Shown here one piece after another: positions 49,766 through 51,309 of a stretch of DNA of 64,000 bases. Every line of letters begins with the position of its first letter. The stretch's first letter is position 1. The notes beneath the pieces were generated by a model. The model did no database searches and was not told the origin of the DNA. It saw only the letters and a program-made list of their open reading frames with translations. Both the position numbers and the translations under genes were made by a program. The DNA comes from a phage: the NCBI GenBank assembly GCA_021537435.1, contig GCA_021537435.1_3050.1; one strand, 5' to 3'.

Positions 49766-50314
49766 ACCCAAGAAAACATCTACTGATCGTTGATACCACT
49801 GCAAATCCAAATAGCCATTACGCACATTAAACTGATAGAACATATGACAAGGCGGTAATGCCATATATTTAAGTTCAGCTGGATTCCACGCAGAAACAAT
49901 TTGTCGCCTATCATTCGGCAGTTTTTTAATACGATCAATAACTTCTATAATTTGGTCTACACCACCAAAATCACGCCATTGTTTTCCATAAATTGGACCA
50001 AGTTCACCGCTATGGTATCCTAAATCTTTTGCTTGATTTTCGTAATTTTCATCCCAGACTGTTTTGCCTTGAATTAATGAATCATGCTGAATTAATCGTA
50101 AATCATTGACATTCGTGCTTCCTGATAAAAACCATATTAACTCAGCAATGCAAGCTTTCCAAGCGAGCTTTTTAGTTGTTACTGCAGGAAAACCTTTGGT
50201 TAAATCCCAACGCAATTTAGTACCGAACAAAGCAATTGTTCCTGTGCCCGTTCGGTCATCGGTTTCATAGCCGTTTTCAAGAATGTCTTTAATTAAATCT
50301 TGGTATTGTTTCAT
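49766..50314 (-). CDS. td: thymidylate synthase, exon 1
   Basis: 183 codons MKQYQDLIKDILENGYETDDRTGTG…ALPPCH…VDVFLG, ending at the splice site. Confidence 0.92.
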
Positions 50315-50359
50315 TTAGTACCTTATATAAATTATAATACATTTTATGAAGCTAAATAA

Positions 50360-50707
50360 TCAATACGGTTTAGCATCAAATTTTCTCTCAATTTCAGGCG
50401 TGAAATATAATTCTTTACCGCGTTTGGAAAAGCGACCAATAATATGATAATTATTCTCATCAAACGTGATATTGCCGATATCCATAGCTTTCAACCAAAT
50501 ATCGATATTTCTATCCAACTTTATGTCAAAATTCCAATACGGAGAACTATTACCGAAAATACTGCAAGCGGATTCAGTAAAACAACTACTATAAATCTTG
50601 TCTTTAGGAACTACTAATTGATAGACGCCTTTAATAAACTGAGGACCCTGCCATTTTGGTTGTTTCGCGTCTTTTTCTAATAGAATAGGGTAATAATTAA
50701 AATTCAT
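50360..50707 (-). CDS. hypothetical protein in the frd-td insert (115 aa from ATG; 119 aa from GTG at 50719)
   Basis: ORF fills a 417-bp insert at the frd/td junction; no recognisable motif. Confidence 0.5.
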   Translation of the reverse strand: MNFNYYPILLEKDAKQPKWQGPQFIKGVYQLVVPKDKIYSSCFTESACSIFGNSSPYWNFDIKLDRNIDIWLKAMDIGNITFDENNYHIIGRFSKRGKELYFTPEIERKFDAKPY

Positions 50708-50727
50708 ATTTTCCGCCACGTGTTATT

Positions 50728-51309
50728 TCATTTATATACTGATTCTGTAAGGGTTGTTACTTCATCTATTTTATACCAATGCGTTTCAACCATTTCACGC
50801 TTGCTTATATCATCAAGAAAACTTGCATCTAATTGAACAGTTGAATTAACACGATGCCTTTTAACAATACGAGAAACAACTACTTCATCTGCATAAGGTA
50901 ATGCAGCATATAATAGAGCAGGTCCGCCAATTACACTTACTTTGGAATTCTGATCAAGCATAGTCTCGAATGGTGCATTAGGGCTTGACACTTGAATTTC
51001 GCCGCCAGAAATGTAAGTTATATATTGCTCCCAAGTAATATAGAAATGTGCTAAATCGCCGTCTTTAGTTACAGGATAATCACGCGCAAGGTCACACACC
51101 ACAATATGGCTACGACCAGGAAGTAATGTAGGCAATGACTGGAACGTTTTAGCACCCATAATCATAATTGTGCCTTCAGTACGAGCTTTAAAATTCTGGA
51201 GGTCCTTTTTAACTCGCCCCCATGGTAAACCATCACCTAAACCGAATGCTAATTCATTAAAGCCTTCGACCGTTTTAGTTGGAGAATAAGCGAATACCAA
51301 TTTAATCAT
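50728..51309 (-). CDS. frd: dihydrofolate reductase
   Basis: 193-aa ORF ending …TESVYK*, upstream of td as in T4. Confidence 0.9.

Follow-up and report, generated by a model that had tools for sequence, protein, structure and literature searches.

The stretch of DNA analysed here (the window, 64,000 nt) is a segment of a Tequatrovirus (T4-like) genome whose early and middle genes lie on the - strand. Between frd, encoding dihydrofolate reductase, and td, encoding thymidylate synthase, it carries a small gene (orf115) and two spacers, and the 9-mer TAAATGAAA is found at both gene junctions. The features of the region are as follows.

53096-54004, - strand: gene 32
51566-51898, - strand: orf110 (110 aa), between frd.1 and frd; absent in T4 and in the T2 fragment
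51309-51554, - strand: orf81 (81 aa), between frd.1 and frd; absent in T4, present in T2
50728-51309, - strand: frd, short form, 193 aa, ending in ..SVYK-TGA (from the ORF list; 99% amino acid identity to T4 frd)
50726-50734, - strand: left copy of the 9-mer TAAATGAAA, made up of the final codon and the stop of frd plus 2 nt
50723-50731, - strand: vestigial mini-ORF ATG-AAA-TAA, which includes part of the left 9-mer copy
50708-50725, - strand: variable 18-nt spacer TAACACGTGGCGGAAAAT with a weak ribosome-binding site
50360-50707, - strand: orf115 (RB32ORF229c family, PHROG 1928), 115 aa from the ATG at 50707
50315-50359, - strand: conserved orf115-td spacer, 45 nt
50309-50317, - strand: right copy of the 9-mer TAAATGAAA, comprising TAA and the td start ATG AAA
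49763-50314, - strand: td exon 1 (from the ORF list; 99% amino acid identity to T4 td exon 1)
48897-49634, - strand: I-TevI, within the group I intron of td (from the T4 annotation and the ORF list)
48438-48752, - strand: td exon 2
45616-47880, - strand: nrdA

On the coding strand, the 3' end of frd reads ...GTA TAT AAA TGA. An ATG at 50729-50731 shares two bases with the TGA at 50728-50730, and the start ATG of td lies at 50314-50312 (- strand). The two copies of the 9-mer were found exactly where the sequence-only reading had placed them, at 50309-50317 and 50726-50734; they are 417 nt apart from start to start, with 408 nt between them. The perfect repeat comprises these 9 bp and no more, since the neighbouring bases of the two copies do not agree (A/C before, T/C after). 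An imperfect extension of the repeat in the window (13/15) is absent in most relatives. Across the 64-kb window, 8 copies of the 9-mer were counted (3.55 expected), a number that none of 100 shuffles reached. Since, in addition, 11 of the 63 long ORFs in the window (17%) start with ATGAAA, the 9-mer is a somewhat favoured word in this genome. The pair is non-trivial because its copies fall exactly where the indel that separates the window from T4 begins and ends.

Alignment with the T4 reference (NC_000866) demonstrated that the window corresponds to T4 plus one copy of the 9-mer and the intervening sequence. T4 has the same flanks (94-98% nucleotide identity to the window) and an ATGA overlap of frd and td, and it lacks orf115, the spacer, orf81 and orf110. 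Its junction reads ...CAGTATATAAATGAAACAATACC, and the window minus 417 bp gives this ATGA junction base for base. The alignment thus bore out the earlier claims that the repeats stand at the exact boundaries of the difference from T4 and that excision of one repeat together with the insert restores TATAAATGAAACAATAC, and the T4 annotation agreed with the claim that no ORF lies between frd and td in that phage. The td start ATGAAACAATACCA was found to be conserved across genera.

The left copy of the repeat was compared with the corresponding site in relatives. In RB14, RB3, BECP11 and the Mosigvirus phage Shf125875, this site has the sequence TATAAAAATGAAATA and is read in frame as part of frd, the 3' end of the gene being TAT AAA AAT GAA ATA ... 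TAT GAA TTT TAA. The long frd so formed (RB14 locus L012, 380-418; Shf125875 locus L011, 384-422; RB3 locus L033; BECP11 locus L031; compare 50723-50736 of the window) encodes 204 aa with the tail NEIxxGGKYEF, 11 aa more than the short form of 193 aa, and it overlaps the start of orf115 by 11 nt. Outgroup frd genes overlap their downstream ORF by 4-23 nt. The window has a short frd, like RB32 and T2 and in contrast to RB14. The two forms are distinguished by the length of an A run, which is A5 in the long and A3 in the short one, a difference of 2 nt; with two A's fewer, the frd frame of the window runs into the TGA stop, and an 8-nt match (AAATGAAA) is extended to the perfect 9-mer. Since the sequence just downstream is otherwise nearly identical in RB3 (long) and the window (short), a simple 2-nt slip accounts for the short frd. 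The 18-nt spacer is a remnant of the long-frd tail, whose +1 frame is still open in the window, and it showed both substitutions and A-run indels among the 13 loci compared. The open +1 tail prompted the idea of a programmed +1 frameshift that would restore the long frd; it was set aside, because a run of 11 open codons has no statistical weight and AAA-TGA is not known as a favourable slip site.

The left copy can in this way be explained as former coding sequence of frd, with no need for a duplication of the td start. The target-site-like duplication proposed in the sequence-only reading is not supported, since the left copy is coding in the four phages with the long frd and neither a transposase, nor terminal inverted repeats, nor a second copy of the segment was found.

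Occupied and empty sites were surveyed among phage records, as had been suggested. The 408-nt segment was present in 363 records at 80-98% identity, with one copy each, always between frd and td; the carriers include T2, T6, RB14, RB32, RB51 and AR1. The uninterrupted T4-type junction, probed with 71 nt across the T4 junction, was found in 32 records. These include T4 and its re-sequenced or near-identical relatives (T4T, RB55, RB59, vB_EcoM_112, F1, FN, G28 and FL12) as well as HY03, SG1, G2133, JEP6 and FL18. FL18 is filed under Mosigvirus, yet its frd/td junction is T4-like and its flanks are 94-95% identical to those of T4; these identities suggest either an exchange of the region between genera or a classification issue.

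A third allele, found in 147 records, carries a 206-bp insert with a 68-aa ORF whose start lies at the frd ATGA and whose end, TAATG, overlaps the td start (fHoEco02, HE2_240, 598-804 of locus L004; pSs-1, gp245, 507-713 of locus L005; JS98, locus L021); a homolog lies at 2173-2373 of locus L007 in Entb_45. In fHoEco02, pSs-1 and JS98, it occupies the same slot as orf115, but the protein is unrelated and the border repeat is only the 5-bp AATGA. No family match was found for the 68-aa ORF in NCBIfam or PADLOC. Its nucleotide identity was at least 99% in 114 of the 147 records, across Tequatrovirus, and the protein identity of the Dhakavirus copies (JS98, IME281 and IME341) was 98.5%. So uniform an ORF is more suggestive of recent spread than orf115 is. 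Empty ATGA junctions with AAATGAAA are the rule in Gaprivervirus (VR7, VR20, VR25 and SP18) and in most Mosigvirus phages, including RB69, and were also found in the Dhakavirus phages QL01 and Bp7. The QL01 junction resembles a precise loss of the 68-aa ORF between AATGA repeats.

In the RefSeq/GenBank records of RB32 and RB14, the gene between frd and td is named RB32ORF229c and bears the note 'flanked by 9 bp repeat'; therefore, both the ORF and the repeat were already public knowledge. This gene (YP_803171.1 in RB32, YP_002854567.1 in RB14) has the same frd-td position and the same flanking 9-bp repeat as the gene in the window, from which it does not differ in any substantial way. The orf115 protein is identical in RB14, T2 and T6 and near-identical in RB32. 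What the 417-bp segment holds is a common, conserved gene that had been annotated before; the exception is T4.

A single ORF lies between the two 9-mer copies, with 119 aa if read from the GTG at 50719 or 115 aa if read from the ATG at 50707, and with its stop codon at 50360-50362. The ATG is more likely to be the start than the in-frame GTG. In phage Pinarejo (locus L032, about 680-685), this ATG is replaced by ACG, and the record begins the gene at the upstream GTG equivalent to 50719 of the window. Residues 8-115 of orf115 matched positions 2-125 of the 126 positions of the PHROG 1928 profile (E 9.5e-36). Exhaustive phmmer against 1.84 billion representatives was needed to collect the homologs, since a word-indexed search gave 3 clusters only; phmmer returned 16 clusters of 99-116 aa and one further weak local match to an 838-aa protein (E 7.4e-4). 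Judged by these searches, the family is small and lineage-restricted. Its conserved residues are Q16, W19, G27, G91, K95 and G97.

The dN/dS ratio of orf115 was about 0.03 among 12 Tequatrovirus and Mosigvirus alleles, and all 13 nucleotide differences from T2 (13/13) were synonymous. By this pattern of substitutions, orf115 is under strong purifying selection. Within Tequatrovirus, the synonymous divergence of orf115 (dS 0.12-0.25) was equal to that of the flanking genes (0.09-0.30 for frd and 0.10-0.34 for td); the gene has therefore been resident at the site for as long as the diversity sampled in the genus. In RB14, G8 and one metagenomic contig (loci L012, L014 and L016), an identical or nearly identical orf115 protein stands beside a divergent td exon 1 (dS 0.74-0.96 versus the window), which places a recombination breakpoint at or near the td start. 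Co-conversion with homing of the td intron was rejected as the cause of orf115 conservation, because the nucleotide divergence of the ORF is ordinary and because td exon 1 of G8 and RB14, at dS 0.74-0.87, lies beside an identical orf115 protein.

The AlphaFold model of orf115 (pTM 0.84) consists of beta strands and one helix. Homology and structure prediction, proposed for this ORF in the sequence-only reading, yielded the PHROG 1928 family and a confident model (pLDDT 90.9) but no match to a domain or a solved fold. In BFVD, structure matches were confined to uncharacterised proteins of T4-like phages, and the predicted fold had no match among solved structures, nuclease folds included, although it bears a faint OB-like resemblance. 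Pfam and NCBIfam gave no match, transposases and integrases included; the PADLOC models of anti-phage defence and counter-defence gave none at E up to 1; and a profile search against PDB sequences gave noise only, with dynein at E 0.01. No GIY-YIG, HNH, LAGLIDADG or similar domain was found in orf115, and the conserved residues fit no such motif. The labels 'putative homing endonuclease' and 'glucose-1-phosphate adenylyltransferase' that some records attach to orf115 received no support from the domain and fold searches. Literature searches on RB32ORF229c and the frd/td junction found nothing relevant, and orf115 is not discussed in the review of Petrov (2010).

Homologs of orf115 with 26-47% amino acid identity were found by tblastn in other Tevenvirinae genera, and every homolog inspected lies between frd and td. 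They cover at least five further genera: Jiaodavirus (Mineola), Kanagawavirus (PEi26 and Entb_45), Roskildevirus (Cronus), Moonvirus (Moon) and Kagamiyamavirus (EcS1). PEi26 and EcS1 have tandem paralogs, with the second copy after the first; in Moon, the next ORF opens with the QKKW motif of the family; and in Cronus, the same fold is predicted for an adjoining ORF of 144 aa. In Entb_45, a single frd-td interval holds one homolog of orf115 (47%) and one of the 68-aa ORF (68%, adjoining td), and this double occupancy fits differential loss from a fuller ancestral interval. Homologs of orf110 stand at the same place in Mineola and PEi26, with 44-50% identity. Because it lacks orf115, orf81 and orf110, T4 looks reduced along the whole stretch. 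The proposal of a newly inserted cargo cassette was largely not sustained, given 363 occupied against 32 T4-type empty sites, the synteny in five further genera and the old dS.

The spacer between orf115 and td is also conserved. The stretch that runs from TTAGCTTCA up to the td ATG does not vary among 12 Tequatrovirus loci, save for a 1-nt indel in a T run in two of them, and this invariance stands against the dS of 0.12-0.25 of orf115 in relatives. The spacer contains the Shine-Dalgarno sequence of td, AAGG, at 50321-50324. In the window, td is thus not overlapped by frd and has a Shine-Dalgarno sequence of its own, as expected from the earlier claim that the segment uncouples it from frd. 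T4, which lacks orf115 and the spacer, consequently has a td with no Shine-Dalgarno sequence of its own that overlaps the frd stop. RNA structure in the spacer was not significant (z = -1.34), and no terminator-like hairpin was found at the locus.

A MotA-box-like GCTTCA followed after 10 nt by TATAAT was found in the spacer at 50331-50352. The consensus of the MotA box is (a/t)(a/t)(a/t)TGCTT(t/c)A, which precedes a TAnnnT -10 element by about 12 bp. TTTAGCTTCA fits this consensus at 9/10 positions and is followed by TATAAT after 10 nt or by TAATTT after 12 nt; a sigma-70-like TTGATT-18-TATTAT is also present. In the window, four matches to the pattern GCTTYA-N10-13-TATAAT were counted where 0.30 would be expected, all of them on the - (transcribed) strand. 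By this enrichment, the pattern probably marks middle promoters of the MotA type. The three sites outside the spacer have a GCTTYA-N13-TATAAT arrangement on the - strand (18506-18530, 37657-37681 and 58579-58603) and are probably MotA-dependent middle promoters. Because the spacing in the spacer is atypical (10 nt, versus 13 nt at the other three sites), a middle-type (MotA) promoter for td is proposed there only as a possibility.

Taken as a whole, the data make it probable, in our judgement, that the difference between T4 and the window is due to a deletion between the 9-bp repeats in the T4 lineage, which removed resident orf115 and its spacer. The 417-bp segment, a small gene with a 45-nt spacer, would be a long-standing resident of the Tevenvirinae frd-td interval, and each of the two copies of TAAATGAAA would simply belong to an ordinary gene junction: the one on the right to the conserved td start ATG AAA after TAA, the one on the left to the end of frd, where the change from A5 to A3 would have truncated a longer frd that formerly overlapped orf115 and thereby created the 9-mer. 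In T4, replication slippage or illegitimate recombination between the 9-mers would then have deleted orf115 and the spacer, leaving td translationally coupled to frd. The microhomology recombination suggested in the sequence-only reading is accordingly retained as a likely mechanism at the 9-mer, most likely, though, as a deletion in T4.

Spontaneous deletions in T4 typically end in short direct repeats, and rII deletions ending in such repeats are an example. As in those deletions, the repeats at the frd-td locus are shorter than 10 bp and a few hundred bp apart, and one copy is kept in the shorter genome; the difference is that the frd-td event is reconstructed from natural variants. We infer its direction, that is, loss in T4, from the occupied majority in the genus, from a synteny that reaches deep, from the old alleles and from the long-frd intermediates, and the lack of orf81 and orf110 upstream of frd in T4 favours the same direction. 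In local trees, the 3' end of T4 frd was closer to carriers of orf115 or the 68-aa ORF (97.6-98.1%) than to other empty-site phages (96-96.5%), so that the empty state appears nested among occupied genomes. The flanks are heavily recombined mosaics, and local trees consequently give no clean ancestral state, the choice between one and several deletions included.

The opposite direction, in which the T-even ancestor was empty and orf115 was acquired or re-acquired from a relative with the order frd(long)-orf115-td, comes near to the sequence-only reading; it appears unlikely but deserves serious consideration. A left crossover in the AAATGAAA microhomology combined with homologous recombination on the right, in td, would give flanking 9-mers, and a crossover between T4-type TATAAATGAAA|C and RB14-type AAAATGAAA|TACC yields exactly the left junction of the window type. 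Empty junctions, moreover, dominate Mosigvirus and Gaprivervirus and occur in Dhakavirus, so the ancestor of the closest genera could have been empty; the three allelic states are also interleaved on flank trees. Between Shf125875 of Mosigvirus and Tequatrovirus, orf115 is more conserved than td (dS 0.78 versus 1.79), and this lower divergence hints at lateral exchange. Against acquisition stand the synteny of the family in at least five more distant genera and Tequatrovirus orf115 alleles that are as deep as the flanks at synonymous sites. The near-identity of RB3 and the window downstream of the A run means that a 2-nt slip suffices for the short frd, and T4 also lacks the neighbouring syntenic ORFs.

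It is rather doubtful, but conceivable, that the frd-td slot acts as an 'ORF socket', in which orf115, the 68-aa ORF or nothing would be joined in stop/start register through the word AAATGA(AA). If this were true, stop/start words would serve as recombination joints at which single genes are swapped or dropped while the translation of their neighbours is undisturbed. Separate from this and just as doubtful is the idea that orf115, with its confident predicted fold without a solved relative, its dN/dS of about 0.03 and its constant place beside frd and td, might assist the dNTP-synthesis machinery of the phage as an accessory so far overlooked and missing from T4. Mobile cassettes composed of a promoter and a stem-loop (PeSL) have reportedly been proposed for modular shuffling in T4-type genomes. 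Common to that proposal and the frd-td locus is the notion of single ORFs being gained or lost through short repeated sequences of a regulatory or junction type; unlike those cassettes, the frd-td segment does not have a promoter and a stem-loop at both borders, and its repeat is a 9-nt stop/start word.

A chance occurrence of the 9-mers, with the T4 difference having some other origin, is very improbable. The word is favoured, with 8 copies in 64 kb and ATGAAA starts in 17% of long ORFs, but the T4 indel starts and ends exactly in the repeat, flank identity runs up to the repeat, and the same exact boundaries were found in all 32 empty-site records. Least probable of all, to the point of being nearly negligible, is an autonomous mobile element with a homing endonuclease or transposase-like ORF that made a 9-bp target-site duplication: apart from the 'putative homing endonuclease' label in the BASEL records MZ501046, MZ501089 and MZ501113 and the closeness to the I-TevI-bearing td intron, beside which the sequence-only reading had placed the cargo protein but to which no link was found, the segment has no terminal inverted repeats, only AT-rich, 78%-complementary pseudo-repeats near its ends, and no second copy or other genomic site in the 363 records.

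The deletion in the T4 lineage, which we prefer, has consequences mainly for how this region is read, and the significance of the finding extends little beyond housekeeping. orf115 is a small, strongly conserved T-even gene that is invisible to T4 genetics, and the use of T4 as the default reference leads to common genes being misread as insertions. The T4 reference is an unusual, reduced genome at the frd-td locus, and the classic ATGA overlap of frd and td probably arose secondarily, through a deletion between short repeats, and does not represent the ancestral design.
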